From assembly GCA_035288465.1 (NCBI GenBank), contig DATEAH010000007.1:66090-130089 (forward strand): a DNA stretch of 64,000 nucleotides, written 5' to 3'. Both the position numbers and the translations under genes were made by a program. A model generated the notes under the pieces. The model was not told where the DNA came from and searched no databases. It was given only the letters and a program-made list of their open reading frames with translations. This document shows, one piece after another, positions 5,689 through 50,014 of the stretch (positions are counted from its first letter, which is position 1; each line of letters opens with the position of its first letter). This stretch comes from Patescibacteria group bacterium (lineage in GTDB: Bacteria; Patescibacteriota; UBA1384; DATEAH01).

Positions 5689-5693
5689 ATAAT

Positions 5694-10567: not shown

Positions 10568-10571
10568 AACT

Positions 10572-11068: not shown

Positions 11069-11133
11069 CATTTCGTCAATAGCAAAAAGAGCGAGGCTTA
11101 CCATTTAAGGCGACTCGCTCCACAACTCTTCTT

Positions 11134-11207: not shown

Positions 11208-11241
11208 CCAATTTATCACTTCAATTTAAACAAAGGAAAAA

Positions 11242-11457
11242 ATGGACAAAGCGATTAATATCGTCCAGATTACATCAGCATTATTATTAATCCTGACAAT
11301 TTTACTTCAGCAACGCGGAGCAACTTTGGGGGGCGCTTTTGGCGGTGAAAGCGCAGTTTATAATACCAGAAGAGGACCCGAAAAATTGCTTTTTATTATT
11401 TCGATTATTTTTGCGATTATTTTTTTGGTTTCAGCCGTAATTAATGTTCTCAGGTAG
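11242..11457 (+). CDS. secG: preprotein translocase subunit SecG
   Basis: 71 aa, 2 TM. SecG signature LLQQRGATLGGAFGG. Confidence 0.75.
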   Translation: MDKAINIVQITSALLLILTILLQQRGATLGGAFGGESAVYNTRRGPEKLLFIISIIFAIIFLVSAVINVLR

Positions 11458-11466
11458 GGGGACAAT

Positions 11467-13221
11467 TTGAATATTAGGAAGGCAAAGCTATTTTTGTCTT
11501 TTAAATTGCGCCATTTTTTGAGACTAATCATCACTAAAATTAGTGGTTTTATTTCAATTTTTAAACGAATGAGACTCGCATTGGGTTTACTTTCGATTAT
11601 GGAAAAAAGAATCATCATTATCTGTACGATTGTTTTTTTGGTGGCATTAGGTTTTTTGGTGCGAAAAATATACCTAAAAAATTCATATTTAGTCCCAGCA
11701 GTTGGCGGTAAAATCTCCATTGCTGAGGTTGGGGAACCAAAATTATTGAATCCGCTTTTTGCTAAATCCTCTGAAGATAAGGACGTGGTGAATTTGGTTT
11801 ATTCGGGTTTATTTTACTGGGATAATAATTTAGTCTTAAAGCCTGATTTGGCAAAAAAATGGGTGATTTCTGAAGATCGAAAAACCTATACTTTTGCCCT
11901 AAACGAGGTAAATTGGCATGACAATATGCCAGTTACTTCTGAAGATATTGCTTTTACAGCAAGCGTGATTTCTGATCAACAATATGCCGGTCCTTTGAAG
12001 GGTTTGTTTGATAATGTCACAGTTGAACCGGTTGATGATAAAACAATTAAATTTACCTTAGCTGAACCTTACCAGCCATTTTTAAAAAGACTTACCTTTG
12101 GGATTTTGCCAGCACATGTTTTAGGTAATGTGCCAACTGATCAGCTCGAGGAAGATAATTTTAACCTTTCTCCAGTAGGCTCGGGACCTTATATGGTGCA
12201 AAAAACCAAACTTATCGGCAACACAAAACAAGTAATCTTAGAAAGAGTTGCCACGAGTAAAAATCGTGATTCCTTCATTTCTGAAATCACTATTAATTAT
12301 TTTAAAGATTTTGAAGGAGCTGCTAAGGCTTATCAAAAAGGCGAGGTTTCAGTTTTAACCAATATTCCAGTAGAGGAATTTAAAGAAATTAGCAAGAATC
12401 GGGATTTAAATTTGTATCATCTTAAAGCTGCCAGTTATATGGTGTTATTTTTTAACCTGACAAGTGACAATTTAAAGCAAAAAAGCATTCGTGTCGCAAT
12501 TGCGGAAAGCATTAATAAAAATGCGATCATTGACGAGGTTTTATCTGGCAACGCAGAACCGGTTGAGGGTCCGATTTTGCCAGGCTTTTTAGGCTATTCT
12601 GAACAAATGAAAGCGGTCAAATATGATTTTCAAAAAGCCGAAAAAGATTTAGCGCAAATAGGTTTTAAGAAAAACGATTTAGGAATTTTAACCAAAAATG
12701 GCAAAGTGCTGGAGTTTAATTTAGCCCTAACTGATGATGAAGTGAGTATGGCCACAGCGGAAAAAATCAAAGCGCAATTGGCCGAAGTTGGGATTAAGGC
12801 AAATGTGATACAAGCAGATTTGTTAACGCTCCAGACAGATTACATTTTTAACCGTAAATTTGATATGTTGCTTTTTGGTGAAAATTTAGGTCCAGACTCC
12901 GATCCTTACCCATTTTGGCATTCTTCTCAAATTGGCACGACTAAGCTAAACTTTTCTGGATTTTCCAATAAAGAAGTTGATAAGCTTTTGGAGCAAGCTC
13001 GAACCACCAGTGATAAAAAACTACGTCAGAAAAATTATCAACGCTTTCAACAAATTATTATTGATGATGTACCAGTAATCTTTATTTTTCGACCAGATAG
13101 TTTGTTGGCGGTGAACTCAAAAGTGAAAGGGGTTGAAGAAAATAACCTGATTTCAAGTTCTGATAAACTTTTTCAACTTAAAAACTGGTATTTAAAGATG
13201 GGTAGAAAAAAGAATAAATAA
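11467..13221 (+). CDS. ABC transporter substrate-binding protein, family 5 (oligopeptide/dipeptide/nickel type). The true start is probably internal, near the MEKRII TM anchor.
   Basis: SBP_bac_5 architecture about 540 aa long. An N-terminal hydrophobic anchor is followed by LFAKSSEDKDVVNLVYSGLF. Confidence 0.85.
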   Translation: MNIRKAKLFLSFKLRHFLRLIITKISGFISIFKRMRLALGLLSIMEKRIIIICTIVFLVALGFLVRKIYLKNSYLVPAVGGKISIAEVGEPKLLNPLFAKSSEDKDVVNLVYSGLFYWDNNLVLKPDLAKKWVISEDRKTYTFALNEVNWHDNMPVTSEDIAFTASVISDQQYAGPLKGLFDNVTVEPVDDKTIKFTLAEPYQPFLKRLTFGILPAHVLGNVPTDQLEEDNFNLSPVGSGPYMVQKTKLIGNTKQVILERVATSKNRDSFISEITINYFKDFEGAAKAYQKGEVSVLTNIPVEEFKEISKNRDLNLYHLKAASYMVLFFNLTSDNLKQKSIRVAIAESINKNAIIDEVLSGNAEPVEGPILPGFLGYSEQMKAVKYDFQKAEKDLAQIGFKKNDLGILTKNGKVLEFNLALTDDEVSMATAEKIKAQLAEVGIKANVIQADLLTLQTDYIFNRKFDMLLFGENLGPDSDPYPFWHSSQIGTTKLNFSGFSNKEVDKLLEQARTTSDKKLRQKNYQRFQQIIIDDVPVIFIFRPDSLLAVNSKVKGVEENNLISSSDKLFQLKNWYLKMGRKKNK

Positions 13222-13271
13222 AGTTAGAGATTGAAATTTGAACTCAAAAAGGTTAAAATAGAGCTTGAATG

Positions 13272-13355
13272 GGGCGAATGGCGGAATTGGTAGACGCGCA
13301 GCGTTCAGGTCGCTGTGGGAGCAATCCTGTGGAGGTTCGAGTCCTCTTTCGCCCA
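13272..13355 (+). tRNA. tRNA-Leu (anticodon CAG)
   Basis: 84 nt with a long variable arm. Anticodon loop TTCAGGT. Acceptor GGGCGAA/TTCGCCC. Confidence 0.85.
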
Positions 13356-13368
13356 GCGTGAAAATTGT

Positions 13369-13451
13369 GGGGACGTGGTGGAATTGGTATACACGACAGG
13401 TTGAGGGCCTGTGCTCGCAAGAGCGTGAGAGTTCAAGTCTCTCCGTCCCCA
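13369..13451 (+). tRNA. tRNA-Leu (anticodon GAG)
   Basis: 83 nt with a long variable arm. Anticodon loop TTGAGGG. Acceptor GGGGACG/CGTCCCC. Confidence 0.85.
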
Positions 13452-13563
13452 TTTATATAATTTGCAGCCTTTAAACTAAAGTTTGGCTGTTTTTTTATTA
13501 ATTATATGTTATACTTTCATCAAGTTGATACTCGAGTCCAATCCAGAACCGGAGGTCATAGGA

Positions 13564-14226
13564 ATGGAACTGACAGCTAGAAACACGATTGTTTTAGCTA
13601 TCAAGCGAACATATCCTCGAGGTTGTTGGGGTGAGAAAAATTACTGGTTTGATCAATTTCCGAAAGGTTCAGATTTACTCTCTGCTTCTCTTGCGCGTAA
13701 TGAATCCGATAATTGTTGTATTTCAGCTCTGCTTGCTAAAGGGGTCGGGCAAAATGAAGCCCCAACGATTGCCAATTGGATATCTTTTGTGCTGGCTGGT
13801 GCAATTATCGCCACCAAAACCAGGAAATACATTATTCCTCCTGAAAAGAAACCATACGATTGGGAATCTAATATTGAGCAATTTGTTTGGGAACAGCTCT
13901 GGATGAAGATCCAGTGGAAGCGCCATCCCCTTGATTCTGATTTTGTGGTCGTTATGCTGCGTGAATTTGTACCCAGGCATCATATGGGCGGTGAGCTTTA
14001 TCCTAGTTTTTGCCGAAGCACCTTTGCCGGTCTTTGGCCTCATGTGTATCAACCGGTGGGTGGATCTTCTATCCATTCATTACTACCAGAAACATTAGAG
14101 TTGGGTAACCGATCCTTTGATACTTCATCCGAAGAAATTCAAGATTCAATTCTTCAGGTGGCAGAACATGTTCCGACCATGCTTGAGATTGCCAATGCCC
14201 GAATTCGGAAAACTTATTCTTGGTGA
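13564..14226 (+). CDS. hypothetical protein (ORF track 13483..14226)
   Basis: GC is visibly higher than the genome background. Trp/Cys-containing, with no recognisable motif. Lies directly downstream of the tRNA-Leu pair. Confidence 0.4.
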   Translation: MELTARNTIVLAIKRTYPRGCWGEKNYWFDQFPKGSDLLSASLARNESDNCCISALLAKGVGQNEAPTIANWISFVLAGAIIATKTRKYIIPPEKKPYDWESNIEQFVWEQLWMKIQWKRHPLDSDFVVVMLREFVPRHHMGGELYPSFCRSTFAGLWPHVYQPVGGSSIHSLLPETLELGNRSFDTSSEEIQDSILQVAEHVPTMLEIANARIRKTYSW

Positions 14227-14248
14227 CCCCATTGATTCGGGAGGTGAG

Positions 14249-14830
14249 ATGGGTGAGAAAACCGAATATCGGATCGATTTTGACGGATTAATTCTAAATG
14301 TCGCTGAACTGAAAGCTCGGGAATTGGCACATTTTGGTTTAGAGGTGGAAATTGACGGGGTTAAACGTAAATTTATTGTTGAGGAAGGGCTACTCACAGA
14401 TCCAGAATATTCGGCTTTTCTTAAAGAAACTTATCGAAACCGAGACTTGATGAGAACCTATCAACCCGTACCAGATGCGATTGGATCAATTTGGCGTTTA
14501 CAAAATGAAGGTTACCAAATTGTTGTGATTACGGCTCGCGAAGGTGAGGCATTAAATATTGCCAGGGATTGGATGCGAAGAGTAGGATTAGAATTAGAGA
14601 TTTTAGGAGTCGGCTTAAGATAAGATAAGGTTGATGTTGCACGAGCATGCGAGTTGGCTATTTATATTGATGATGATATTGATAAACTCGCACCCTTGGT
14701 TGGTATTGTTCCATATCTTTTCTTGTTTTCCTGGCCATATAATCTTGCCGAAGATGAAAGAAATATTGCTAAGAGAATTTTTTCTTGGCAAGAGTTTTAT
14801 AGGGAAATTCAACAGCTTAGGAAGGTTTAA
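14249..14830 (+). pseudogene. HAD-superfamily 5'(3')-deoxyribonucleotidase-like gene interrupted by an in-frame TAA at 14621..14623
   Basis: RBS ggaggtga precedes the ATG at 14249. HAD motif I DFDGLI, motif II VVITAR; motif III/IV DDD (AIYIDDDIDKL) lies downstream of the stop in the same frame. The downstream part contains no Met or alternative start codon. Confidence 0.6.
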
Positions 14831-14989
14831 TTCCAGAGGGAGCCTTCCTTTTTTAATTTGCGGCAAAGCGAACAAAATGGTAAAATTTATTTAATAAAGA
14901 AATTAAATTCCTCGAGGATAACTGAGCTAAACCCCTAGAGCATACTCGGGGTAAATCCCGCCGAAAGTACAACGGGATAAAGGAGAAAA

Positions 14990-15265
14990 ATGCTTTCAAA
15001 AATACCCACTGATTTATCCAAGATTAAAAAAGAAGACAAAGACCGACAAATTTTAAGGTTGGGAATGATGGCGGAATTAGATGCGATCAGCGTTTATGAA
15101 CAATTAGCTGCAGAAACTAATAGTCGCAAAATCAAAAATGCCTTGTTGGATATTGCTCGAGAAGAAAAAACCCATGTTGGTGAATTTGAAACCCTGCTTT
15201 TACAAATCGACAAAGAACAAGTCGAAGAATCTGCAGCTGGTAAAAAAGAAGTTAATGAATTTTAA
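14990..15265 (+). CDS. ferritin-like / rubrerythrin-family small protein
   Basis: 91 aa. Paired E..(E/H) helices (AELDAISVYEQLA ... DIAREEKTHVGEFE) typical of ferritin-like diiron folds. Confidence 0.5.
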   Translation: MLSKIPTDLSKIKKEDKDRQILRLGMMAELDAISVYEQLAAETNSRKIKNALLDIAREEKTHVGEFETLLLQIDKEQVEESAAGKKEVNEF

Positions 15266-15279
15266 AGATATTATAAATT

Positions 15280-16044
15280 ATGAAAATTTATTCTTGGAAT
15301 GTGAACGGGATAAGATCAGCTTGGAATAAGGGTTTTTTAAGCTGGTTTGAGACGGAAAATCCAGACATTGTCGGTTTGCAGGAAATGAAAGCACAACCCG
15401 AAACGATTGAACATCTTGAAATTCCCAAAAATTACCATTTTTATTTTAATCCGGCTCAGAAAAAAGGCTATGCCGGGGTAGCGGTTTTTTCTAAAATTAA
15501 GCCTCAAAAAGTACTCTATAATATAGGAATAAAAAGATTTGACTCAGAGGGTCGTTTTTTACGTTTAGATTTTGAGGATTATATTTTAATTAGTGTTTAT
15601 ATGCCTCACGGAGGGCGCGCTAAAGAGAATTTGGATTATAAATTACAGGTCTATAAAAAATTATTGATTTTATTAAAAACATTGACTTCGCAAAAGGTAA
15701 TTTTGATTGGTGATTTTAATATCGCCCATGACGAAAGAGATTTGGCAAGACCCAAGGAAAATAAAAATAATATTATGTTTTTGCCCGAAGAAAGAGAAAA
15801 AATAGATCAATTGATAAAAATGGGTTTTATTGATAGTTTTCGAAAATTTCATCAGAATAATGGACATTATTCTTGGTGGCCATATTATCGCCAAGCTCGT
15901 CAAAGAAATTTGGGTTGGCGTTTAGATTATATTTTTGTTTCAGATAAATTAAAATCAAAATTAAAAAACGCCCAGATTCAAGTGCGGGTTTTAGGTTCTG
16001 ACCATTGTCCAGTTCAAGCGGAACTAATTAACTTCGCAAAATAA
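15280..16044 (+). CDS. xth: exodeoxyribonuclease III (AP endonuclease)
   Basis: 254 aa. MKIYSWNVNGIRSA, GLQEMK, GDFNIAHDERD and C-terminal SDHCPV motifs of the EEP/Xth family. Confidence 0.9.
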   Translation: MKIYSWNVNGIRSAWNKGFLSWFETENPDIVGLQEMKAQPETIEHLEIPKNYHFYFNPAQKKGYAGVAVFSKIKPQKVLYNIGIKRFDSEGRFLRLDFEDYILISVYMPHGGRAKENLDYKLQVYKKLLILLKTLTSQKVILIGDFNIAHDERDLARPKENKNNIMFLPEEREKIDQLIKMGFIDSFRKFHQNNGHYSWWPYYRQARQRNLGWRLDYIFVSDKLKSKLKNAQIQVRVLGSDHCPVQAELINFAK

Positions 16045-16624
16045 TTTTTGGTTGTTGTTGAGTAAAATCAACAATTTTTGAGAGAGGTTTTTGAGGTAAA
16101 ATACCAGCATCAATGATTAAATCTGGTTTAACTTTTTGTGATTTAAAAAATTTAATCGCCTTTTGAGCTGACCAAATTTCAGGGGATCCGGACAAATTGG
16201 CACTTGTTGCAGTATATGGGAGTTGAATCTGAGCCGAGAGAGCTTCGGTAAAAGGAAAATCAGGTATTCTTAAGCTAATTGAATTATTGGTGTTGGTATA
16301 AATTTTTTGATTTTTTTTCAAGGGTAAAATAATTGTATATGATCCTGGCAATATTTTTTTTAGCTCGATTTTGGTATATTGGTTAATTTTGGCAAATTTT
16401 TCCGCCATTTCTAAATTCGTCACGATTACTGAGATCGGTTTATCGGCCGGTCTGTTTTTAATCTGAAAAACTTTCCGAACCGCTTTCGGATTGGTGGCAT
16501 CGGCCGCTAAACCATAGCAAGTGTCTGATGGAAAAACTATTACTCCGCCTTTTTTAATGATTTGGCTGATTTTGATTAATTTATTTTTCGAAATATTTTT
16601 AAGATTTATTTTGATAATTTTCAT
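16028..16624 (-). CDS. tsaC: L-threonylcarbamoyladenylate synthase (TsaC/YrdC family)
   Basis: 198 aa. YrdC motifs GGVIVFPSDTCYGLAADA, KNRPADKPISVIV and TATSANLSG. Confidence 0.85.
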   Translation of the reverse strand: MKIIKINLKNISKNKLIKISQIIKKGGVIVFPSDTCYGLAADATNPKAVRKVFQIKNRPADKPISVIVTNLEMAEKFAKINQYTKIELKKILPGSYTIILPLKKNQKIYTNTNNSISLRIPDFPFTEALSAQIQLPYTATSANLSGSPEIWSAQKAIKFFKSQKVKPDLIIDAGILPQKPLSKIVDFTQQQPKIILRS

Positions 16625-16716
16625 AAATCTATTATAAACTTAAACTTGATTTTAGGCGAAGGTTTTGATAAAATTGTTATGAATTGATTGGGATAAAAGG
16701 ACGACCTTTGCGAAAC

Positions 16717-16792
16717 GCACCCGTAGCTCAGCGGTTAGAGCGCTTGGTTTACATCCAAGAAGTCGTCCGTTCGAATCGGACCGGGTGTACCA
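16717..16792 (+). tRNA. tRNA-Val (anticodon TAC), with CCA encoded
   Basis: 76 nt. Anticodon loop TTTACAT. T-loop TTCGAAT. Confidence 0.9.
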
Positions 16793-16814
16793 TTAGTGAA
16801 AGTTGCCGCGACGT

Positions 16815-16886
16815 GCCGAGGTAGCTCAGTGGCAGAGCACATGACTGAAAATCATGGTGTCGGCAGTTCGATCCTGCCCCTCGGCA
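16815..16886 (+). tRNA. tRNA-Phe (anticodon GAA)
   Basis: 72 nt. Acceptor GCCGAGG/CCTCGGC. Anticodon loop CTGAAAA. T-loop TTCGATC. Confidence 0.9.
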
Positions 16887-16919
16887 TAGCTTTTCATCTT
16901 TTTTGGATGTAAATATTTT

Positions 16920-17387
16920 ATGAAGAATTTATTATTCGAGTTTTTTAAAAAATATTTTTCCCGCCAATTTTTATTGACTAATCAAATTGTCCCGCAAATT
17001 CAGGACACAGTTTTAATCATTTTGTTAGCAATTCTAATTTTAGCAACGATTATTAAGGTGGCGGAATATATTTGGTTTAGGACAAAAACTCCCTGGCAGC
17101 ACTTTTTAAATCAAATTTTTAGTTGGTTGCTGACGGTGGCGTTGATTGGATTGGGATTTTGGCTTTTTGCTAAGGCTGATTTGCCTTTTTTCTCAGATTT
17201 TTTTTGGTGGTTATTGCTATCATTGACATTTATAGTTTGGGGGTTTATAATTTTAAATTATGGGATAAGAAAATTCCCGCAAGAATTATTTAGGCATCAA
17301 AATCAAGTTAGAAAAGAAAAATATCTGCCTCATCGGCAGACAAGCCTGCTTCGAAAACGGGTTAAGATGGCTAAATCTAAAAGGTAA
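16920..17387 (+). CDS. hypothetical integral membrane protein
   Basis: 155 aa with 3-4 predicted TM helices and a basic C-terminal tail. Confidence 0.4.
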   Translation: MKNLLFEFFKKYFSRQFLLTNQIVPQIQDTVLIILLAILILATIIKVAEYIWFRTKTPWQHFLNQIFSWLLTVALIGLGFWLFAKADLPFFSDFFWWLLLSLTFIVWGFIILNYGIRKFPQELFRHQNQVRKEKYLPHRQTSLLRKRVKMAKSKR

Positions 17388-17393
17388 AAAAGC

Positions 17394-18491
17394 ATGATTA
17401 AAACTGAAGCGAAAATGGAAAAAATTCTTAAAAACCAGGTTTTGTATTTGCCCTTGAAAGAAGGTGATACTGCCGAAGGGTCAATTTTAAGTAAGACTCG
17501 AAATCGAATTTGGGTTGATGTCGAAGGTCGCGGTATTGGTATGATTCCGCCTCGTGAAATTCCTTTTGAGGCAGAAGATTTAAAAATTGGCGAAAAAATC
17601 ATCGCCTTTGTCTTAAAACCCGAAGACGAAAAAGGCCATATCATCCTTTCTTTGAAAAAAGCGGATCGGGAAAAAATTTGGTTGAACCTAAAGCGCAAAT
17701 TTGAAGATCAAGAAAATATTTTCGTGAAAGTCGTGGAAGCAAATCGGGGCGGTTTGATGGTGGAAACTTCTGGGGCAAAAGGATTTTTGCCTTTATCACA
17801 ATTATCATCTAAGCATTATCCGCATGTTGGTGGGGACAAAGAAAAGATTTTAGAAAAATTAGCCAAGCTCGTTGGCTTGAAATTAGACGTTAAAATTATC
17901 AGTTTTGACCAACAAGCCTTAAAATTAATTTTTTCCGAGAAAAAAGCTTCTTCAAAGGTTGAGAAAGAAAAAATTGCGAGTTTGAAAGTTGGCACTAAAA
18001 TTAGCGGAACAGTTTCAGGAGTAGTTGATTTTGGAATTTTTGTCCGCTTTAATTTGGGCGAAGAAGGCTCAGAAGAATATGAAGGTTTGGTCCACATTTC
18101 TGAAGTTTCCTGGAGTAAAGTCGAAGATATCAAAAAAGAGTTTAAAATTGGCCAAAAAATCGACGCCGAAATTATTTCCACCGAAGAAGGCCGGATTTCG
18201 TTAAGTATTAAAAGACTTTTGCCTGATCCTTGGGTGAAAAAAGTTAAAAAATATAAAACTGACCAAAAAATCTTCGGCAAAATTACTCGTGTGACGCCGT
18301 TTGGAGCTTTTGTACAATTAGAAAAAGATATTGAAGGTTTAGTTCATATTTCTGAAATTGGTGATGAACACATCACTGATCCGAGAAGTTTACTCGAAGA
18401 AGGTCAAGAAAAAGAATTTCGCATCATTTCGATTGAGCCAGGCGCACATAAAATTGGTCTCAGTTTAAATATTCCAAAAAGCAAAAAATAA
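17394..18491 (+). CDS. rpsA: ribosomal protein S1-like (four S1 RNA-binding domains; short form)
   Basis: 365 aa. Repeated S1 domain signatures GxV..I..fGaFV and VHISEVSW. Confidence 0.8.
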   Translation: MIKTEAKMEKILKNQVLYLPLKEGDTAEGSILSKTRNRIWVDVEGRGIGMIPPREIPFEAEDLKIGEKIIAFVLKPEDEKGHIILSLKKADREKIWLNLKRKFEDQENIFVKVVEANRGGLMVETSGAKGFLPLSQLSSKHYPHVGGDKEKILEKLAKLVGLKLDVKIISFDQQALKLIFSEKKASSKVEKEKIASLKVGTKISGTVSGVVDFGIFVRFNLGEEGSEEYEGLVHISEVSWSKVEDIKKEFKIGQKIDAEIISTEEGRISLSIKRLLPDPWVKKVKKYKTDQKIFGKITRVTPFGAFVQLEKDIEGLVHISEIGDEHITDPRSLLEEGQEKEFRIISIEPGAHKIGLSLNIPKSKK

Positions 18492-18521
18492 ATTAGCGAT
18501 CATTAATTTATTGAGGGTAAA

Positions 18522-19181
18522 ATGGAAATTAAATGGTATGGGCAATCATGTTTTGCCCTGCAAACCAAAAAAGTAAAAATTATTATTGATCCATATTCGG
18601 ACAGCATTGGTTTGAAATTACCCTTACAATTAACGGCAAATATTGTTTTAGTCACCCATAATCATCAAGATCATAATAATGTTGAGGCAATTTCAGGAAA
18701 CAATGGCGAAAAACCTTTTAGGATTACCGGTCCGGGCGAGTATGAAGTTTCGGGGATTTATTTTCATGGTATCGGAAGTTTTCATGATAAGTTAGAAGGA
18801 AAAGAGCGTGGTTTAAATACAATTTATACTATCGATGATGGCAATATTCGACTTTGTCATTTAGGAGATTTAGGCACGGGTTTAAGTGACGAGCAATTGG
18901 AACAAATTGGCGAAGTTGATATTTTATTTGTGCCAGTGGGTGGTACGTATACGATTGACGTGGCGAAAGCCGTCGCGGTAATTGGCCAAATTGATCCTAA
19001 AATTGTCATTCCAATGCACTATCAATTGCCGGGCTTGCAAGTTGATTTAGCTGAAGTCGGAGAATTTTTGGAAGCTGAGGGAATTTCTAACAAGGAAGCA
19101 TGTGAAGTGTATCGAGTGGCAAAATCTGATTTACCAGCCGAAGAAAGAGATGTAGTGATTTTTAAGGCACAGAATAAGTAA
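18522..19181 (+). CDS. MBL-fold metallo-hydrolase
   Basis: 219 aa. VTHNHQDH metal-binding motif. Confidence 0.75.
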   Translation: MEIKWYGQSCFALQTKKVKIIIDPYSDSIGLKLPLQLTANIVLVTHNHQDHNNVEAISGNNGEKPFRITGPGEYEVSGIYFHGIGSFHDKLEGKERGLNTIYTIDDGNIRLCHLGDLGTGLSDEQLEQIGEVDILFVPVGGTYTIDVAKAVAVIGQIDPKIVIPMHYQLPGLQVDLAEVGEFLEAEGISNKEACEVYRVAKSDLPAEERDVVIFKAQNK

Positions 19182-19320
19182 ATTTCTAATATCTAAGTCC
19201 TAATTTCTAAATAATTACCAAATCCCAAACATCAATAACCAATCAAATTCTAAACCTCAAATCTCAAAAAATTTGGAAATTGAAAACTAATATTAAGTTA
19301 ATTAGAATAATTAGAAATTT
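19182..19320. repeat. AT-rich intergenic inverted-repeat element, copy E
   Basis: aaatttctaatatctaagtcctaatttctaa ... aattagaataattagaaattt. The ends are inverted copies of each other, with the same ctaa/tcctaa flavour as the other copies. Confidence 0.45.
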
Positions 19321-19329
19321 TAATACTAT

Positions 19330-19417
19330 GCCCGAGTGGTGAAATTGGTATACACGCGACACTTAAAATGTCGTGGCCTAAACAGCCGTGCCGGTTCGAG
19401 TCCGGCCTCGGGCACCA
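19330..19417 (+). tRNA. tRNA-Leu (anticodon TAA), with CCA encoded
   Basis: 88 nt with a long variable arm. Anticodon loop CTTAAAA. Acceptor GCCCGAG/CTCGGGC. Confidence 0.85.
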
Positions 19418-42773: not shown

Positions 42774-45512
42774 ATGGCATTTCTACAGTTTTTAGTCGGA
42801 GACCAAAACAAAAAAGAAATTAATCGCTTAGAAAAAATCGTGGTTGAAATTAATGCTTTGGAATCTGAAACTGAAAAATGCTCCAACCCTGAGCTTAAAA
42901 AAGAAACTCAAAAATTAAAAGATGAAATTGCCGAATTTCAAAAAACTCACCAATTACCCTTGGGAAGTTTGGCTGAACTAGATAAAACCGAAGTTAAAAG
43001 AATTCAAAAAAAAGAACAAGAAATATTAAACCAAATTTTACCAAAAGCGGCCGCCTTGGTTCGAGAAGCGGCCAAAAGAACTATCAAACAACGGCATTTT
43101 GATGTTCAGTTAATAGGTGGGATAGTTTTGCATACTGGGAAAGTCGCAGAAATGAAAACTGGTGAAGGAAAAACTTTGGCGGCGACTATGCCTCTCTTTT
43201 TGAATGCCTTAGCGGGACATGGGGCGCATTTGGTGACCGTGAATGATTTTTTGGCCAAAAGAGACGCCCAATGGATGGGCCCAATTTATCATTTATTGGG
43301 ATTATCAGTGGCCTGTATCCAACACGAAAAATCATATTTATTCGAACTGACTTCTGACAAAGTGGAATTTGGGGAAGAATTTAACCTTAAAGCCTGCACC
43401 CGTCGGGAAGCCTACGCGGCAGATATTACCTATGGCACTAATAATGAATTTGGCTTTGATTATTTAAGAGATAATATGGTTTCTAATATGTCTCAATGCG
43501 TGCAACGGGAACTTTATTTTGGAATTGTGGATGAGGTAGACTCAATTTTAATCGATGAAGCCCGCACACCTTTAATTATTTCTGCACCAGCAGAAGAATC
43601 AACGGAATTATATCAGCGTTTTGCTCGTTTTGTGCCAAGCCTTAATAAAGAAACGGATTATAGCGTTGATGAAAAAATGCAATCAGTGATGTTAACTGAT
43701 GAAGGCATGAAAAAAACCGAGCGTTTTTTGGGCGTGAAAAACCTTTACCAAGAAGGTGGAGTAATGTTGGTTCACCATCTGGAAGAAGCCTTAAAAGCTC
43801 ACGTTTTATTTAAAAAAGACAAAGATTATGTGGTTAAAGAAGGCGAAATTGTGATTGTTGATCAATTTACGGGCCGTTTGATGCCGGGTCGTCGCTATTC
43901 TGAAGGTTTACACCAGGCGATTGAGGCTAAAGAAAATGTGGAAATTAAGAGAGAGTCTGTGACCTTGGCGACAATTTCGTTTCAAAATTATTTTAGAATG
44001 TATGGCAAGTTGGCAGGAATGACTGGTACCGCCAAAACCGAAGAAGAGGAATTTTTCAAAATTTATGGTTTAGAGGTGATCGTGGTGCCAGCGAATAAAC
44101 CGATGGTTCGTGCTGACTTAGCAGATCGAATATATCGGACCGAAGAAGGTAAATTTCAAGCGGTGGTTGAGGAAATTCGTCAACGCCATGAAAAAGGTCA
44201 GCCAGTTTTGGTGGGAACAATTGCGATTGAAAAATCAGAAGTCTTATCGCAAATGTTACGGCGCGAAGGAGTTAAGCATAATGTTTTAAATGCCAAATTT
44301 CACGAAAAAGAAGCTAAAATTATTGCCCAGGCGGGTCGGGTTGGAGCGGTGACAGTGGCAACTAATATGGCGGGTCGTGGTGTGGATATTATTTTAGGCG
44401 GAAGTCCTGCCGAACCTGCAGAACAAAAGAAAGTGTGCAAGGCAGGCGGTTTGCATGTTTTGGGAACTGAACGTCACGAGGCGCGCCGAATCGATAATCA
44501 GTTGAGAGGTCGATCTGGTCGGCAGGGCGATCCGGGATCATCGCAATTTTATGTTTCTATGGAAGATGATTTGATGAGAATTTTTGGCGGGGATCGCATT
44601 AAAAGAATTATGGAAGTCTTAAAAGTACCCGAAGACCAACCCGTGGAAAATAAATTAATTTCCAGATCATTAGAATCATCTCAAAAACGAGTCGAAGGCT
44701 ATAACTTTGATTTGCGCAAACATTTGGTTGAATATGATGATGTGATGAATAAGCATCGGGAAACGATATATCGCCTTCGCAAAAAAATCTTAACTCATCA
44801 GGATTTGCGATCGGAAATTTTAGAAATCGTGGTCGAATATTTTCGACGCTTAGCCCAAATGCATGGGGCTGGCAATAAGGAAGTTTGGAATTTAGAGGAA
44901 ATTGTTAAAAACTTAAAAGCGGTATTAGGTGTAAATTATTCAGATGATGTTGAAAAGCATCTTTTAAAACTTGAGACCGAAGCACAAATTGAAGATTATT
45001 TGGTTAAATTAGCGGGAATTATTTTTGAGGAAAAAGAAAAATCTCTAACTCCAGAAGTGATGCGTCAAGTCGAAAAAGCAATCTATTTGCGAACTATTGA
45101 TGCCCTGTGGATAGAACATTTAACCAATATGGAGGAGTTGCGTGAAGGAATTGGCTTGCGCGGAATTGGACAACGCGATCCTCTTGTCGAATACAAGCGA
45201 GAAGCTTATAATATGTTTGAGGGTTTATTAGCAGATATTGAAACAAATGCGATAAATATGATTTTTAGGACCGAGGTGGAAGCAGCTCCGCAAAATTTAA
45301 GCGAAAGACCGGCTCGTCAAATGACAATGAGCGGCGCGAGCGAAACGGCGGCAGCGGGAACTTTTTCAGGATATAACCAAGAAAGCATGATGGAAAAAGA
45401 AGCGGCAACTCGATCTGAAACTGTTGTCAAATCTGAAAAAGTTGGTCGCAATGATCCTTGTCCGTGTAATTCTGGCAAAAAATACAAAAAATGTCATGGC
45501 CGCTTTGCTTAA
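42774..45512 (+). CDS. secA: preprotein translocase ATPase SecA
   Basis: About 912 aa from MAFLQF. DEAD-like motor (GEGKTL, VDEVDSILIDEARTPLIIS, ATNMAGRGVDI). C-terminal zinc motif CPCNSGKKYKKCHG. Confidence 0.95.
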   Translation: MAFLQFLVGDQNKKEINRLEKIVVEINALESETEKCSNPELKKETQKLKDEIAEFQKTHQLPLGSLAELDKTEVKRIQKKEQEILNQILPKAAALVREAAKRTIKQRHFDVQLIGGIVLHTGKVAEMKTGEGKTLAATMPLFLNALAGHGAHLVTVNDFLAKRDAQWMGPIYHLLGLSVACIQHEKSYLFELTSDKVEFGEEFNLKACTRREAYAADITYGTNNEFGFDYLRDNMVSNMSQCVQRELYFGIVDEVDSILIDEARTPLIISAPAEESTELYQRFARFVPSLNKETDYSVDEKMQSVMLTDEGMKKTERFLGVKNLYQEGGVMLVHHLEEALKAHVLFKKDKDYVVKEGEIVIVDQFTGRLMPGRRYSEGLHQAIEAKENVEIKRESVTLATISFQNYFRMYGKLAGMTGTAKTEEEEFFKIYGLEVIVVPANKPMVRADLADRIYRTEEGKFQAVVEEIRQRHEKGQPVLVGTIAIEKSEVLSQMLRREGVKHNVLNAKFHEKEAKIIAQAGRVGAVTVATNMAGRGVDIILGGSPAEPAEQKKVCKAGGLHVLGTERHEARRIDNQLRGRSGRQGDPGSSQFYVSMEDDLMRIFGGDRIKRIMEVLKVPEDQPVENKLISRSLESSQKRVEGYNFDLRKHLVEYDDVMNKHRETIYRLRKKILTHQDLRSEILEIVVEYFRRLAQMHGAGNKEVWNLEEIVKNLKAVLGVNYSDDVEKHLLKLETEAQIEDYLVKLAGIIFEEKEKSLTPEVMRQVEKAIYLRTIDALWIEHLTNMEELREGIGLRGIGQRDPLVEYKREAYNMFEGLLADIETNAINMIFRTEVEAAPQNLSERPARQMTMSGASETAAAGTFSGYNQESMMEKEAATRSETVVKSEKVGRNDPCPCNSGKKYKKCHGRFA

Positions 45513-45540
45513 TTTGCATAAAATGAAATTATAAGGAGGT

Positions 45541-46227
45541 TTGTTGATCGAATTTAGACACGTCTCAAAAATATACAAAAGTGATAAAAAGGCTTTGGAT
45601 GACGTGTCTTTTAAGATTCCCAAAAAAGAATTTGTATGTTTGGTGGGACCGTCTGGAGCAGGCAAGTCAACCTTAATCAAAATGCTAATTTGTGACGAGA
45701 AACCAAGTTCGGGAAAAATTTTAATCGGCGGATTTAATATCACGAATTTGAAACCGGCGGAAATCCCCTATTTTCGTCGTAAAATTGGCGTTGTTTTTCA
45801 AGACTATAAATTACTTTCCGATAAAAATGTTTTTGAAAATATCGCTTTTGCGCTTGAAGTTTGCGGCGCATCCGACGCGGAAATTCGTAAAAAAGTTCCC
45901 CGAGCCTTAAAATTGGTAGGGTTAGAAAAATGTCTTCAAAATTTTCCTGATGAATTATCTGGTGGCGAAAAGCAACGCGTTTCAATCGCAAGAGCTTTAA
46001 TCCACAGCCCAAAATTACTCATTGCTGATGAGCCGACCGGAAATTTAGACCCCAAAACTGCCTGGGAAATTATTAAATTGCTTTTAAGAATTAATGAATT
46101 TCAAGGGACAATAATTCTATTAGCTACCCATCATAAAGAAATCGTGGATCGTTTAAAAAAACGGGTGATCACTGTCAAAAATGGTAAATTAGTTTCTGAT
46201 CAACAAGAAGGTAAATACATAATATAG
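45541..46227 (+). CDS. ftsE: cell division ATP-binding protein FtsE
   Basis: 228 aa. Walker A GPSGAGKST, ABC signature LSGGEKQRVSIARAL, Walker B LLIADEPTGNLD. TTG start. Confidence 0.9.
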   Translation: MLIEFRHVSKIYKSDKKALDDVSFKIPKKEFVCLVGPSGAGKSTLIKMLICDEKPSSGKILIGGFNITNLKPAEIPYFRRKIGVVFQDYKLLSDKNVFENIAFALEVCGASDAEIRKKVPRALKLVGLEKCLQNFPDELSGGEKQRVSIARALIHSPKLLIADEPTGNLDPKTAWEIIKLLLRINEFQGTIILLATHHKEIVDRLKKRVITVKNGKLVSDQQEGKYII

Positions 46228-46273
46228 CGACTAAATTTTTTAATTTTAATAAATTTGAATTAGAGGATAAAAA

Positions 46274-47209
46274 ATGCAACAAGTGACTGGAACTACGGCT
46301 CTTTCGAGAGTTTTCAAGTGGAGTATTTTGAGTTTTTGGCGAAACCGCTTATTGTCAATTGCGGCCACCCTAGTAATGACTCTAACGCTTTTGACGATTT
46401 CATTATTTGTAATTTTGAATTTAATTATTGGTACGACTGTTGACGTGGTACAACATAAAATTGACCTGGTGGTGTATTTAACTGAATCTGCGACCGAGGC
46501 AGATATTACAAATCTTAAAACTCAAGTAGAACAAATGCCTGAAGTTGCCTCAGTAAATTATATTGATAAAGCTCAAGCTTTGGCAAAGTGGCAATCAAAA
46601 GAAATAAAAGATGAGCTAAAAAATATTGCTACCACCGCTGACAACCCTTTGCCTCGCAGTTTGGAAATTAAAGTCAAAGATTTAACCAAACTTGAACAAA
46701 CCGCCACCTTTTTTGAATCCGCAGAAGTTAAACCTTTGGTGGATAAAACCACCATGCACGAGAATCGGGCGACGATTAATCGATTATTAAAAACTACCCG
46801 TTTCTTTCGCATTAGCGGGATAATTTTTTCAGCATTTTTCGTTTTAATTTCTTTATTGGTTATTTTTAACACGATTCGTTTAGCAATATATAGCCGTCGC
46901 GACGAGATTGACATTATGAAATTAGTGGGCGCCACCAGCTCGGCGATTCGTTGGCCTTTTATAGTTGAAGGGATGTTTTATGGATTATTGGCAACAGTAA
47001 TATCGGTGATTTTGCTCTTTGTGGGTTTTAGATTTTTATCACCAGTAGTAAATAAATATTTAGGCGAGTTAATGACTGAATGGGGTGGCAGTTTGATGAA
47101 TTATTTTATTGCTAATTTGTGGCAAATTATTTTATGGCAATTATTGGTGGGATTCGCGATTGGCGCCGCTTGCAGTTTCTTGGCAATCAGAAAACACCTT
47201 AAAGTGTAG
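46274..47209 (+). CDS. ftsX: cell division permease FtsX
   Basis: 311 aa. N-terminal TM, periplasmic domain and a C-terminal 3-TM FtsX domain. Follows ftsE. Confidence 0.8.
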   Translation: MQQVTGTTALSRVFKWSILSFWRNRLLSIAATLVMTLTLLTISLFVILNLIIGTTVDVVQHKIDLVVYLTESATEADITNLKTQVEQMPEVASVNYIDKAQALAKWQSKEIKDELKNIATTADNPLPRSLEIKVKDLTKLEQTATFFESAEVKPLVDKTTMHENRATINRLLKTTRFFRISGIIFSAFFVLISLLVIFNTIRLAIYSRRDEIDIMKLVGATSSAIRWPFIVEGMFYGLLATVISVILLFVGFRFLSPVVNKYLGELMTEWGGSLMNYFIANLWQIILWQLLVGFAIGAACSFLAIRKHLKV

Positions 47210-47295
47210 AGAGGTGAGACAGAGATTTGAGACAAAGACTTGGGGAAGGAGGGCTTGAAATATTTTTATAAATTTGGTATAATAGATATTAAAGA

Positions 47296-47405
47296 AAATC
47301 ATAAATCCTAAATCCGAAATTCTAAACAAATTACAATTCCAAAATTATAAATCACAAACAGGTATTGTTTAGAGTTTAGTGCTTAGAAATTAGAATTTAT
47401 AAATA
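47296..47405. repeat. AT-rich intergenic inverted-repeat element, copy D
   Basis: aaatcataaatcctaaatccgaaattctaaacaaat ... caaacaggtattgtttagagtttagtgcttagaaattagaattt. The 29-mer is identical to copy C. The arms are imperfect reverse complements. Confidence 0.55.
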
Positions 47406-47416
47406 TTGAGGGGCAA

Positions 47417-48628
47417 ATGCTCTTGAAGAATTTTTTGACAAAAACTATGCAAACTATGAGCAAAATTGTGCTTTATGTTTTTCTCATAGTTTTTTTATTT
47501 CCGCAATATACTGCTGCAGATTCAATTCAGGATAAACAAAGAGAACTGCAGAATATTCAATCTCAAATTGATCAGCAGCAAAAGCTCTTAAATCAAAAAT
47601 CCGGCGAAAGAAGAACCTTGGCAGGTCAAGTTTCATCAATGGATGCGCAAATCAGACAGACTCAACTCTCAATTAATAAAACGCAGACTGAAATTGATTT
47701 AGCGCAGGTTGAAATTACTAAACTTAATACACAAATTGCTCAAAAGGAAAAAGAATTAAAACGTCAAAAACAAATTCTCAACGAAGCCTTGAGAGTAATT
47801 TATCAAGAAACTGACACCAGTTTTATTGAAATGCTATTTTCTTCTAATAATATTTCGCAGGTTTTGGACCAAACTGAATATTTGGGGGCAGTTGAAGGCA
47901 AAATCGAAAATACAATGGCAGAAATCAAACAAGTAAAGTCTGCCCTTGCAACTGATAAAAAAGAGCAGGAAACTAAAAAAACCCAATTGGCTGAGAAAAA
48001 AGATGAATTAAAAATAAAAGAGTCAGGTCTAAGCGGGCAAAGAAATACGCGGAATGGTTTACTGGTTGAGACAAGAGGTCAAGAGTTTGCATACCAACAA
48101 TTATTGTCACAGAGACAAATAGAATGGGAGAGATCCAACGCCGAACTGAAACGTATGGAAGCTGCTTTGTATTCGGGTGGTCCTGATAGTGGACCTGGTT
48201 ATAGTGTCCCAAATTGGCCGATGTATGGAAGAATAAGTGTCCCATATGGGGCTTGTGGGTGTGATGCATATTTTTGTGGTAAATGCCATACGGGCATAGA
48301 TATTGTTGCCAGCCCCTATACTTCAGTTAGAGCAGCAAAAGACGGGGTTGTTAAAGATACAGTTAACTCTTGCCGTGATTCTGTTGGAGATTATGGTTGT
48401 GGTGGAGGATATGGTAATCGGGTTATAATTGAACATAATGATGGTCATGTTTCAATATATGGACATTTAAGTCAGGGTTCTGTGAGGGTAAGAGTGGGGA
48501 CTAGAGTTTCTGGAGGAAAAACGGTGATTGGCTCAGAGGGTAATAGTGGTTTCTCAACCGATTTTCATCTCCATTTTGAAATTAGGAATAGGATGTGGGG
48601 ATCATCTGTAAGACCATTACTACCATAA
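47417..48628 (+). CDS. M23-family peptidase with an N-terminal coiled coil (EnvC-like, FtsEX partner)
   Basis: 403 aa. Signal/TM, a long Q-rich coiled coil and a LytM domain with HTGIDI and HLHFEI motifs plus a Cys-rich insert. Confidence 0.8.
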   Translation: MLLKNFLTKTMQTMSKIVLYVFLIVFLFPQYTAADSIQDKQRELQNIQSQIDQQQKLLNQKSGERRTLAGQVSSMDAQIRQTQLSINKTQTEIDLAQVEITKLNTQIAQKEKELKRQKQILNEALRVIYQETDTSFIEMLFSSNNISQVLDQTEYLGAVEGKIENTMAEIKQVKSALATDKKEQETKKTQLAEKKDELKIKESGLSGQRNTRNGLLVETRGQEFAYQQLLSQRQIEWERSNAELKRMEAALYSGGPDSGPGYSVPNWPMYGRISVPYGACGCDAYFCGKCHTGIDIVASPYTSVRAAKDGVVKDTVNSCRDSVGDYGCGGGYGNRVIIEHNDGHVSIYGHLSQGSVRVRVGTRVSGGKTVIGSEGNSGFSTDFHLHFEIRNRMWGSSVRPLLP

Positions 48629-48696
48629 ATTTAAATATTAATTAAAAATGAATTTAAAAAAGAGGGGCAAAAACCTTTGGTTTGTGTTTTAAGTTA

Positions 48697-48725
48697 TTGA
48701 CAAAATTTGATTTTTATCATAAAAT
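48697..48725 (+). promoter_or_regulatory. near-consensus sigma70 promoter TTGACA-N17-TAAAAT
   Basis: ttgaca (48697-48702), an exactly 17-nt spacer, then taaaat (48720-48725). Predicted TSS ~48732, at the start of the hairpin-rich leader of the RT cassette. Confidence 0.55.
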
Positions 48726-48730
48726 AAAAT

Positions 48731-48975
48731 TACTCGAATTATATTTGAGTAGTGCGCAACGCACTAAAGTTGGTGTTTTTTCGCCTCCAAAATTTCTTGC
48801 CGTTTGTTACTACTACTCAACTGCGAAAATGGAGTTATGGATTATGTGATTTAAGATAATAATATTCAAAATTATTTTAATGATCAACTCACGAATTTGA
48901 AGTATGCATGGAACTGCTTTTGCCATAATCAGCCTTTAACTGCACCTCCTTTTATTAAGGCAAGAAAGGAGGTTT
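48731..48975 (+). ncRNA. candidate structured non-coding RNA / leader upstream of the reverse transcriptase (possible retron msr-msd-like region)
   Basis: No ORF. Perfect hairpins tactcga..ttgagta, gtgcg-caa-cgcac and aactc..gagtt. A long-range complement cctcc..ttcttgcc (48784-48801) pairs with ggcaagaa.ggagg (48958-48974). A 9-bp hairpin acctccttt/aaaggaggt lies at 48944-48972. Confidence 0.4.
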
Positions 48976-49098
48976 ATGAAAATTAAACTAAAAGGCTGGT
49001 TGAAAAGGTCTGGAATGATTCTCGATTTAGTTGCTAAATTATTAGCAGTGATCAAAGTCATAAAGGACCTTTTAGGGTACCGATTAATGCCCTCATGA
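48976..49098 (+). CDS. 40-aa small ORF (amphipathic helix peptide) between the leader and the RT
   Basis: RBS aaaggagg precedes the ATG. Encodes MKIKLKGWLKRSGMILDLVAKLLAVIKVIKDLLGYRLMPS. Its stop codon sits in the hairpin ccctc-atgaa-gaggg that also carries the RT RBS. Confidence 0.3.
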   Translation: MKIKLKGWLKRSGMILDLVAKLLAVIKVIKDLLGYRLMPS

Positions 49099-49111
49099 AG
49101 AGGGATTAAAT

Positions 49112-50014
49112 ATGAAATTGCAACCCATACGTTCTCAAAAAGATTTAAATGATATTTTTGATATTAACGATCAAAAAATTATTAGTCTTATTAAGCTAAA
49201 AAATAAATATAAAAAGCGATCTATCCCGAAAAAATCTGGTGGAATAAGGGTAATAACGGAGCCCGCACCCGAATTGAAATCTTTCCAAAAAAAGCTGGGT
49301 AGCTATATTTTTCGTATGAAAAAATTAAAATTCGCTTATGGTGGCGTGAAGAATAAATGCCGAGAAGATGTCGCTAAACTTCACAGATGTAATTATTTTA
49401 TTCTTAAATGTGATATTAAAAATTGTTTCCCTTCGATTAGAAAAAAAGTAGTGGTTAAAGAATTGTTGAACTTTGGTTTTACATATAAATACGCTAAATT
49501 GTTCACAGAAATAATAACTTTTGAAGGATCTCTTCCTCAGGGTGCACCTTCAAGTCCGGGCATGGCGAATTTAATATTAGATAAGATTGATAATCAAATT
49601 ATAACTGTACTACCGTTTGGCTGTAAATATTCCCGATGGATTGATGACATTATGATTTCATTTCCGAAAAAAAATCAACTAAAAATAATTAAAGACATAT
49701 CGAAAAAAATTGAGAATATAATTCATTCTAATGGTTTAAATCTGAAAGATGGGGTTTCTATTATCCTCAAGGAGCATTGCAGCGATTTACTTGGGCAATC
49801 AATATCTAAGAAGATTAATATTCCTAAAAAATGGTATAAAATTTTACGGAGTCAAGTTTATAGACTTAAAAGGGGATTTTATAAAGGTAAAGAACAAGAA
49901 AAAATAATAGCTTTAATCAAAGGTAAAATGGTATTATTAAAAAGTGTTACCGTCCATCACAAAAAACAAACTAGATATTATACGCTTAAGAAAATACTTG
50001 ATAAAATTATGTGA
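49112..50014 (+). CDS. reverse transcriptase, compact retron-type (no maturase or endonuclease domains)
   Basis: 300 aa. RT motif 1-2 KKSGGIRVITEP, motif A LKCDIKNCFPSI (D101), motif B' LPQGAPSSPGMANLIL, motif C RWIDDIMIS (W-x-DD variant). Retron-like thumb segment LLGQSISKKINIPKKWYKILRSQVY. Ends with TGA. Confidence 0.8.
   Translation: MKLQPIRSQKDLNDIFDINDQKIISLIKLKNKYKKRSIPKKSGGIRVITEPAPELKSFQKKLGSYIFRMKKLKFAYGGVKNKCREDVAKLHRCNYFILKCDIKNCFPSIRKKVVVKELLNFGFTYKYAKLFTEIITFEGSLPQGAPSSPGMANLILDKIDNQIITVLPFGCKYSRWIDDIMISFPKKNQLKIIKDISKKIENIIHSNGLNLKDGVSIILKEHCSDLLGQSISKKINIPKKWYKILRSQVYRLKRGFYKGKEQEKIIALIKGKMVLLKSVTVHHKKQTRYYTLKKILDKIM

Follow-up and report, generated by a model that had tools for sequence, protein, structure and literature searches.

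Organisation of the locus

The stretch of DNA analysed here, called the window throughout, is 64,000 nucleotides of chromosomal DNA from an uncultured Patescibacteria bacterium, a member of the candidate phyla radiation (CPR). An earlier note on this DNA had drawn attention to positions 48697 to 48975 as a promoter-driven, hairpin-dense region without an open reading frame (ORF), lying immediately upstream of a reverse transcriptase (RT) gene and resembling the msr/msd RNA of a retron. Comparison of related lineages, and the covarying helices that it reveals, bear out a promoter-driven, conserved and structured non-coding RNA in the operon of a retron-type RT. The region is not the immediate neighbour of the RT gene, as a conserved gene for a small protein (SP) occupies 48976 to 49098 between the two. 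It is true that no ORF lies within 48726 to 48975, the conserved 40-codon ORF of SP beginning directly after it.

Independent lineages beside the window are L001, L024/L025, L026 and L027/L028, the last being truncated just 5' of the element called a2 below. The leader is complete in four lineages, the window, L001, L024 and L026. The features of the locus are listed here (SD, Shine-Dalgarno sequence).

48697–48725, forward strand: sigma-70-type promoter TTGACA-N17-TAAAAT, read directly; 11/12 in a consensus scan
48731–48751, forward strand: P1, 5'-terminal hairpin UACUCGAA / UUUGAGUA, read from the sequence
48750–48766, forward strand: P2, 7-bp hairpin UAGUGCG-CAA-CGCACUA (core gtgcg-caa-cgcac); stem invariant and 3-nt loop variable in four lineages
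48783–48801, forward strand: 5' arm of helix A, anti-SD GCCUCC (48783–88) and a1-like UUUCUUGCC (48793–801), in a duplex with 48959–73
48802–48958, forward strand: variable interior of ~157 nt, candidate msr/msd template, enclosed by helix A in four lineages
48926–48937, forward strand: 5' arm of helix B, UAAUCAGCCUUU, pairing with SP codons 6–9
48944–48952, forward strand: ACCUCCUUU, 5' arm of helix D, pairing with 48965–48973 into a local anti-SD hairpin, from folds
48959–48973, forward strand: a2-like arm GGCAAGAAA with the SP Shine-Dalgarno site GGAGG(U); GGCA-N-GAAAGGAGGT in all five lineages
48976–49098, forward strand: SP, 40-aa cationic (+7) amphipathic peptide predicted as a single helix; homologous ORF in five lineages
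48991–49002, forward strand: 3' arm of helix B, AAAGGCUGGUUG, within the SP coding sequence, from comparison and folds
49003–49073, forward strand: helix C, a long hairpin in the SP coding sequence (49003–11 / 49065–73 and inner helices), from alignment and folds
49084–49109, forward strand: hairpin T, CCCUC 49090–94 / GAGGG 49100–04, containing the SP stop codon and the RT SD
49112–50014, forward strand: RT, 300 aa, NCBI HLC39047.1 'reverse transcriptase domain-containing protein'; Pfam RVT_1, 2.5e-19

Together these parts make up a cassette of ~1.3 kb, which runs from the promoter through P1, P2, the anti-SD/a1 arm, a variable hairpin interior (~150 nt), a2 with the SD, SP and a terminator-like hairpin to the RT. 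The order is the same in all five lineages, which have no further gene in common and differ in their flanks. Nucleotide homology between the window and L001 covers exactly the leader, SP and RT (48745–49977, 67% identity). As the homology is limited to these parts and the flanks are unrelated, the conserved unit is the cassette and nothing else. No gene for a helix-turn-helix (HTH) protein or another effector was found in any of the five lineages, and no gene lies between SP and RT. Nine more contigs of the window strain (L002, L008 and L012–L018) are 100% identical over the leader and thus add no covariation.

The promoter and the 5' hairpins

The promoter that the earlier note had proposed can be read directly (TTGACA at 48697–48702, a 17-nt spacer, TAAAAT at 48720–48725), and it has equivalents in L001 (1800–1827), L024 (2570–2599) and L026 (2569–2597). 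In all four complete leaders the promoter-like site lies 20–25 nt upstream of P2.

P1 and P2 are conserved in different ways. At the position of P1 the relatives carry, on a by-eye reading, hairpins of other sequence (L001 ACUCAA/UUGAGU, L024 CUUGC/GCAAG, L026 AACA/UGUU), and the stem of P2 is invariant. The motif AGTGCG-N3-CGCACT was confined to loci of this RT family among the 28 loci compared, and a DNA-pattern scan of metagenomes with the P2 motif returned nothing beyond the window's own strain. P2 is a candidate protein-recognition element.

Besides P1 and the core of P2, the note had named a third hairpin, aactc...gagtt (48816–48836). All three are present in the window, the third having in other lineages only a loose equivalent, in L001. 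The direct-repeat-like pair described at 48733 and 48886 can also be found in the window; no counterpart was seen by eye in L001, L024 or L026, and as a functional element the repeat was dropped as chance. A pairing of the 5' end with 48893–48903 in the minimum-energy fold was likewise dropped, not being conserved in L001.

Helix A and the enclosed interior

The long-range complement noticed earlier proved to be slightly longer than claimed, extending over 48783–48801 and 48959–48973. GCCUCC and UUUCUUGCC pair with GGCAAGAAAGGAGGU (48959–73) at -22.6 kcal/mol (z = -4.3, with none of 500 dinucleotide shuffles as good), and every lineage taken singly has the helix ahead of its dinucleotide shuffles (z = -2.1 to -4.3). 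When the a1-to-SD segment is folded without constraints, helix A closes the minimum-energy structure in four of four lineages. The equivalent arms are UUCCUUUCGUGC / GCACGAAAGGAG in L024 and CUCCUUUCG / CGAAAGGAG in L026. A U-A pair of the window is replaced by C-G in L001, C-G being found at that place in L024 as well, and the variable position of a2 forms A-U, G-C or C-G pairs across lineages. The consensus of a2 and the SD across lineages is GGCA-N-GAAAGGAGGU, and the SP start is preceded by AAAGGAGG.

The interior that helix A closes is kept at roughly 146–159 nt, its sequence being only 55% identical to L001, and contains a central AU-rich hairpin at about 48839–48887. Computationally, then, the locus has inverted repeats like the a1/a2 repeats of retrons, around a hairpin-bearing interior, on the same strand as the RT and adjacent to it. 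The bracketing that the note had compared with a1/a2 is conserved, with compensatory changes, and closes a hairpin-containing interior of ~150 nt; however, its 3' arm is the Shine-Dalgarno site of SP, which makes the pairing, at the least, a lock on translation.

Upstream of the promoter, GAGGGGCAAAAAC (48662–48674) is 85% complementary to the pyrimidine/anti-SD tract of the leader at 48775–48787, and a counterpart was not seen in L001. This complement would be relevant only to read-through transcripts from the M23 peptidase gene.

A structured RNA extending to the RT start

Helix B, in which leader sequence ~25 nt upstream of a2 pairs with the first codons of SP, recurs in all five lineages, its sequences being unrelated; the positional equivalents are GAACUUCUUGG / CUCAAGAAGUUC in L024 and others in L026 and L028. 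Helix D, which in the window is ACCUCCUUU / AAAGGAGGU, is matched in the four other lineages by AUCACC..CUUUU / GAAAG..GGUGAU at the same place, with 98% of cells paired. The outer helix of helix C has four of its eight pairs changed on both sides in the five-sequence alignment. Hairpin T is a GC hairpin with a U-run just before or overlapping the RT start, and a terminator scan flags it in L024 (GCCCCG-TCT-CGGGGC followed by TTTTATATTA) and in L026.

Two sets of comparisons support these helices. The comparison of the window with L001 yields three preserved 9-bp helices, where column shuffles lead one to expect 0.04 and none of 500 shuffles reaches three. Helix A (48793–801/48959–67) has one compensatory pair, helix B (48926–34/48994–49002) has two one-sided changes with pairing kept, and helix C (49003–11/49065–73) has one compensatory pair and two one-sided changes. 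In the five 3' halves, helices D and C and hairpin T are recovered by RNAalifold from a plain MAFFT alignment; 85.8% of their cells are paired versus 43–55% when the partners are slid, and 12 pairs are changed on both sides versus 1–6 in the slid controls, a number reached by none of 500 shuffles.

Folded alone, the interval 48730–48980 on which the note had focused gains only a little over shuffles (z = -1.88). For the RNA taken as a whole, between the start of transcription and that of the RT, the fold is clearly non-random, at z = -3.87 in the window and -4.48 in L001, with no shuffle of 100 as good. The structure runs on through the SP coding sequence to the RT start, and it is over this longer unit that the expectation of a stable, covarying fold holds.

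Comparison of the lineages shows one promoter-driven RNA with a conserved predicted structure, from P1 (48731) to the terminator-like hairpin before the RT start (about 49109). A transcript with these ends holds both the non-coding part and the SP coding sequence, as does the hybrid RNA (hyRNA) of Type VI retrons. By the same comparison the ribosome-binding site (RBS) of SP is predicted to be always paired, through either the distal pyrimidine arm of helix A or the local anti-SD of helix D; the first SP codons would pair with the leader in helix B and the rest of the SP coding sequence would fold on itself in helix C. Helix A crosses helices B and D, and the SD is paired in both states; these may be alternative states or parts of a pseudoknot. 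The RBS region of the RT pairs with a tract just 3' of P2 in the RNAalifold consensus, whereas in single-sequence folds it falls within hairpin T. From the stop codon of SP to the start of the RT the distance varies from a ~20-nt overlap to a 13-nt gap (window, L001, L024, L026, L028), and the RT SD shares hairpin T with the last SP codons, an arrangement which suggests that RT translation may be coupled to SP translation.

The modest score of the interval alone, and the finding of 27 promoter-like matches in this AT-rich DNA versus 17 expected, are what one might see if the hairpins had arisen by chance in an AT-rich spacer and the RT were the degenerate remnant of a group II intron, a diversity-generating retroelement or a defence-associated RT (DRT). 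This is very improbable, and the comparative data already contradict it. The promoter, P1, P2, helices A, B, C and D and hairpin T are conserved in position, with covariation, beside RTs that are only 38–58% identical. The RT ORF is intact and under purifying selection, and group II and DRT models score far under retron models.

The small protein SP

The SP ORF ends 13 nt before the RT gene starts in the window. A homologous ORF of 40–50 aa with a strong SD is found in five of five lineages. Its substitutions at codon positions 1, 2 and 3 number 11, 7 and 18, in parallel with those of the RT (92, 61 and 163). This conservation, the bias towards third positions like that of the RT, and the strong SD together argue that SP is a real gene.

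SP has a hydrophobic-amphipathic core at residues ~13–33, and AlphaFold predicts one helix from residue 4 to residue 37 (predicted local distance difference test, pLDDT, 78). It matches no family in Pfam, NCBIfam or PADLOC, and a small-protein search with SP returned identical SP only. SP is a candidate toxic effector.

The reverse transcriptase

RVT_1 is the sole Pfam domain in the window RT. All of its PADLOC matches are to retron RT models (E 1e-46 to 1e-27), and the scores are nearly equal (II-A 157 bits, VI 156 and III-A 152, followed by XII and XI). In NCBIfam the retron_St85_RT model gives 135 bits versus a cutoff of 235. As its scores lie far under those of genuine members of every type, the RT is retron-like but untyped. 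The alternative of a DRT, which the note had also raised, is unsupported. The Drt2, Drt3a and group II intron models reach E 1e-6 to 7e-14 and Drt4 3e-3, versus about 1e-46 for retron models, and all four are below their NCBIfam cutoffs (Drt3a 52 bits against 200, group II 52 against 300, Drt2 28 against 390, Drt4 16.5 against 450).

The window RT belongs to a discrete clade with P0002 (58% identity) and P0040, P0041 and P0042 (38–43%). A profile search of 1.84 billion representatives recovered P0002 and P0040–P0042 at 222–616 bits, the next match being at 128 bits. The catalytic box is RW[IV]DD in all five RTs of the family, with Trp for the Tyr of YxDD; in the window it is RWIDD (49636–49650, residues 175–179). 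All five also have [LIM]LG in place of VTG, and NAxxH is not conserved. Nine typed and untyped comparison retron RTs keep NAxxH and YxDD in every case and [VI]TG in eight. In a neighbour-joining tree with few typed references the family is monophyletic on a long branch.

Searches for further members gave little. A scan of genome contigs with the RT alignment found only a distant Lysinibacillus RT, which means that the GTDB representatives do not include the host; scans of viral contigs with the RT alignment, the SP motif, the P2 motifs and the a2-SD motif gave only distant RTs or chance matches, and the family RT motif was not found in L023 or L029–L036.

Two observations on RT genes may be added. 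The contigs L002/L013 (JGI Ga0209002_10014713), equivalent to window 45331–49687, are 100% identical to the window up to 49687 and then diverge within the RT gene; the RT is cut after about residue 192 and is followed by an unrelated 374-aa ORF without a Pfam match. The contigs represent a strain variant whose RT is disrupted, or else a chimera of the assembly. In L004 (also in L003, L005 and L006; RT P0005) a 21-aa strongly hydrophobic ORF, MELIISLLLILLILKDKSNRY (650–715), ends 7 nt before a 294-aa untyped retron-like RT, and upstream of it are ~500 nt without a called gene. This may be another minimal module of a peptide and an RT.

Comparison with known systems

Canonical retrons, such as Retron-Eco1/Ec86, have an msr-msd RNA with a1/a2 repeats, a 2'-5' branched msDNA (multicopy single-stranded DNA), and an RT with the motifs NAxxH, YADD and VTG. 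The cassette is like them in that its RT is most similar to retron RTs, its non-coding RNA (ncRNA) lies upstream on the same strand with its own promoter, and inverted repeats close a hairpin-containing interior of ~150 nt. It is unlike them in that the 3' repeat is the SD of the putative effector gene, whose mRNA is within the same structured RNA, and in having no conserved branching G, no Rfam msr match and altered RT signature motifs.

The mRNAs of type I toxin-antitoxin systems (tisB, zorO, dinQ, hok) have 5' untranslated regions that mask the ribosome-binding site until the mRNA is processed. The likeness here is a functional analogy only. It consists in a small hydrophobic or amphipathic peptide, an SD held by long-range pairing with the leader, and the freeing of the SD on removal of the leader in our modelling. 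In contrast to those systems no antisense small RNA gene is evident, and the leader is linked to an RT and has a retron-like template domain.

The closest likeness is to Type VI retrons, which consist of an ncRNA, SP, an HTH protein and an RT (bioRxiv 10.1101/2025.10.22.683967; 10.64898/2026.04.27.721009). In Retron-Vpa2, described by Zhang et al., the msr-msd and the SP coding sequence form a hyRNA of ~470 nt in which the RBS and AUG lie in stems; SP is toxic and translationally repressed, its translation needs msDNA, even if supplied in trans, and the HTH protein represses reverse transcription (bioRxiv 10.1101/2025.10.22.683967). In Retron-Sen3, described by Garcia-Rodriguez et al., the SP coding sequence covaries, the RBS of the next gene pairs just downstream of a conserved stem-loop, and the HTH protein is an antitoxin; Type VI SPs are reported to be unalignable even with one another (bioRxiv 10.64898/2026.04.27.721009).

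The cassette shares with Vpa2 and Sen3 the succession of a promoter, a structured ncRNA, a small helical SP and then the RT. A single structured transcript is predicted here to cover the ncRNA and the SP coding sequence, as in Type VI; the RBS of SP would be enclosed by the basal inverted-repeat stem, and local stems would likewise take in both RBS and AUG. In both systems the next gene, too, has its RBS tied up in a pairing, predicted in the window consensus to be with the tract 3' of P2, as in Sen3. By comparison with the published descriptions, helices A, B, C and D and P2 correspond computationally to the features of a Type VI hyRNA, and the ORF of 40–50 aa corresponds to the small helical protein gene between ncRNA and RT.

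There are also differences. The Cro/C1 HTH protein is not present in this family; the genuine Type VI matches P0038 and P0029 have a 96-aa HTH_3 gene between SP and RT. SP is shorter, at 40–50 aa; the papers give 55 aa for Vpa2 and 79 aa for Sen3, and two Type VI loci that we examined have SPs of 74 and 105 aa. Neither by hidden Markov model score nor in the neighbour-joining tree is the RT grouped with Type VI, and it has RW[IV]DD, no NAxxH, and LLG for VTG. The conserved stem-loop lies 17–26 nt upstream of the inverted repeat and not immediately upstream, and the host is a Patescibacteria metagenome-assembled genome (MAG). A detailed comparison of structure with the Type VI locus L021 is uninformative, as its organism lacks SD-type RBS.

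The cassette could still be an ordinary Type VI retron which has lost its HTH gene or has it elsewhere, and which would work like Vpa2 or Sen3. We regard this as unlikely. The order of ncRNA, SP and RT and the hyRNA features do match, and the PADLOC RT_VI model is aligned end to end with the window RT (positions 2–275 of 279). Moreover, HTH is absent from about 22% of Type VI entries and a Type VI retron from a CPR bacterium (Levybacteria) is on record (bioRxiv 10.64898/2026.04.27.721009). Yet the 156 bits on RT_VI are no better than the scores on II-A and III-A, whereas real Type VI RTs reach 198–243 bits with a margin and carry SP-HTH-RT. For P0040–P0042 the best retron model is II-A or III-A and not VI, and gives at most 137 bits. 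Only 4 of 200 neighbour-joining bootstraps place the family as sister to Type VI, a figure from a distance method with few references. The HTH gene is missing from all five lineages, and W replaces the Y of YxDD throughout the family. With RNA features as in Type VI hyRNA, but with the HTH gene absent and the affinity of the RT to Type VI unsupported, the cassette should not be filed as a plain member of Type VI.

Template RNA or regulatory leader

We think it probable, though far from settled, that 48697–48975 is the promoter and 5' leader of a self-contained RNA-SP-RT cassette, in which a retron-type template RNA is fused to the translationally locked mRNA of a toxin. In such a system the RT would bind the invariant P2 and helix A and copy the interior into single-stranded DNA. 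SP would be a toxin that acts on membranes and is kept in check by the RNA locks. When a phage attacks, cDNA would accumulate, RNase H would cut the copied leader and the anti-SD arms would detach from the SP message, whereupon SP would be translated and the infected cell stopped (abortive infection). With no HTH protein in the system, nothing but the RNA would serve as a brake. In partition-function modelling, only severing the RNA at a2 raises the probability of an unpaired SD, to 0.53–0.75. This points to a licensing step in which the a1 arm is lost, through cutting of the copied leader by RNase H or in some other way. Licensing by cleavage would resemble the activation of type I toxin mRNAs by 5' processing.

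Several points weigh against this proposal. The synthesis of cDNA, the toxicity of SP and the role in defence are all inferred from sequence, and 4–5 distinct sequences stand behind all the comparisons. Genuine members of the retron types score 198–470 bits on their own models, versus about 157 for the window RT, which departs from the retron signatures with VAKLH for NAxxH, LLGQ at VTG and WIDD for YADD. No conserved G follows the a1 arm (G48802 in the window, A in L001, L024 and L026), so a canonical branch point cannot be placed. The window has no match in Rfam 15 at the gathering threshold, and with E up to 10 the segment 48550–49250 gave only spurious matches to CRISPR direct repeats (CRISPR-DR), microRNAs, small RNAs and small nucleolar RNAs; the msr/msd likeness suggested by the note thus finds no retron model to match it. 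Helix B is weak lineage by lineage (z = -0.8 to -2.1). One hairpin takes up both the RT SD and the last codons of SP, so that translation of the RT may hinge on that of SP, an awkward arrangement if the toxin is to be repressed. Masking of the template, as if bound by cDNA, was also modelled as a means of exposing the SD and was rejected, as it gave the opposite result, the SD becoming more paired as a1 takes over.

Some of this would be expected of a purely cis-regulatory leader, like a type I toxin mRNA or an attenuator, which controls the SP-RT operon and is not a template, the RT acting on another substrate. That reading accounts for the fact that the well-supported helices (A, D, B and T) all involve the SD, the start region or the terminator-like hairpin, and it is at ease with the lack of a placeable priming G, of NAxxH and VTG in the RT, and of an Rfam match. 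We nevertheless hold it to be rather improbable. An interior of ~150 nt, closed by helix A in all lineages and kept in length while its sequence drifts, exceeds what is needed to lock an SD, and the invariant P2 has no part in masking it. RTs of retrons use the RNA adjacent to them on the upstream side, and this RT is retron-like; no other conserved part of the cassette could be the template. In Vpa2, the closest experimental analogue, the same kind of leader is the template.

Within the favoured reading of a template RNA fused to a toxin mRNA, we tentatively propose a further step, which is possible but which we would not yet expect to prove right. The family may be a previously unclassified retron lineage with a WxDD RT, in which the toxin mRNA is fused to the template, no protein regulator or antitoxin is encoded, and reverse transcription with RNase H licenses translation of the toxin. 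As judged from sequence, this WxDD-RT lineage is so far found in one Patescibacteria MAG and four uncultured relatives.

Genomic setting

In the window the cassette has on one side genes of cell division and the envelope (FtsE, FtsX and an M23 peptidase), and on its other side lie those for a CtpA-type S41 protease and ribosomal protein L9. The flank in L001 is a DnaG fragment, and L026 is flanked by other genes, unrelated to the flanks of L001 and L024. In L024 the cassette lies between a PDDEXK_1 nuclease gene and restriction-like ResIII/RE_endonuc genes (776–2541 and 3901–6885), a neighbourhood resembling a defence island. Elsewhere in the window eight tRNA genes (two for Val, one each for Gly, Cys and Phe, and three for Leu) are clustered at 9562–19417, unrelated to the cassette.

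Significance

Retron defence by a hybrid RNA, whereby cDNA turns on the translation of a toxin carried by the template RNA itself, is known only from preprints of 2025–2026 on Type VI, where an HTH protein complicates the mechanism. What is new here is the combination, in a CPR bacterium, of an architecture in the style of a hyRNA with an unclassified clade of WxDD retron-like RTs and no HTH gene. The W that invariably replaces Y in the YxDD box makes for an unusual catalytic site and deserves biochemical study.

If the proposal is true, the cassette would be a minimal form of the hyRNA logic, naturally without HTH, consisting of a 300-aa RT and a 40-aa effector. It would show whether RNA alone can be the brake, it would offer a very compact pair of RT and ncRNA for retron-based tools, and retron-type immunity would be extended to the ultra-small bacteria of the CPR. 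On the more tentative reading of an unclassified retron lineage, the hyRNA principle would predate Type VI or reach more widely than it, and two genes in ~1.3 kb would be enough for it to work.

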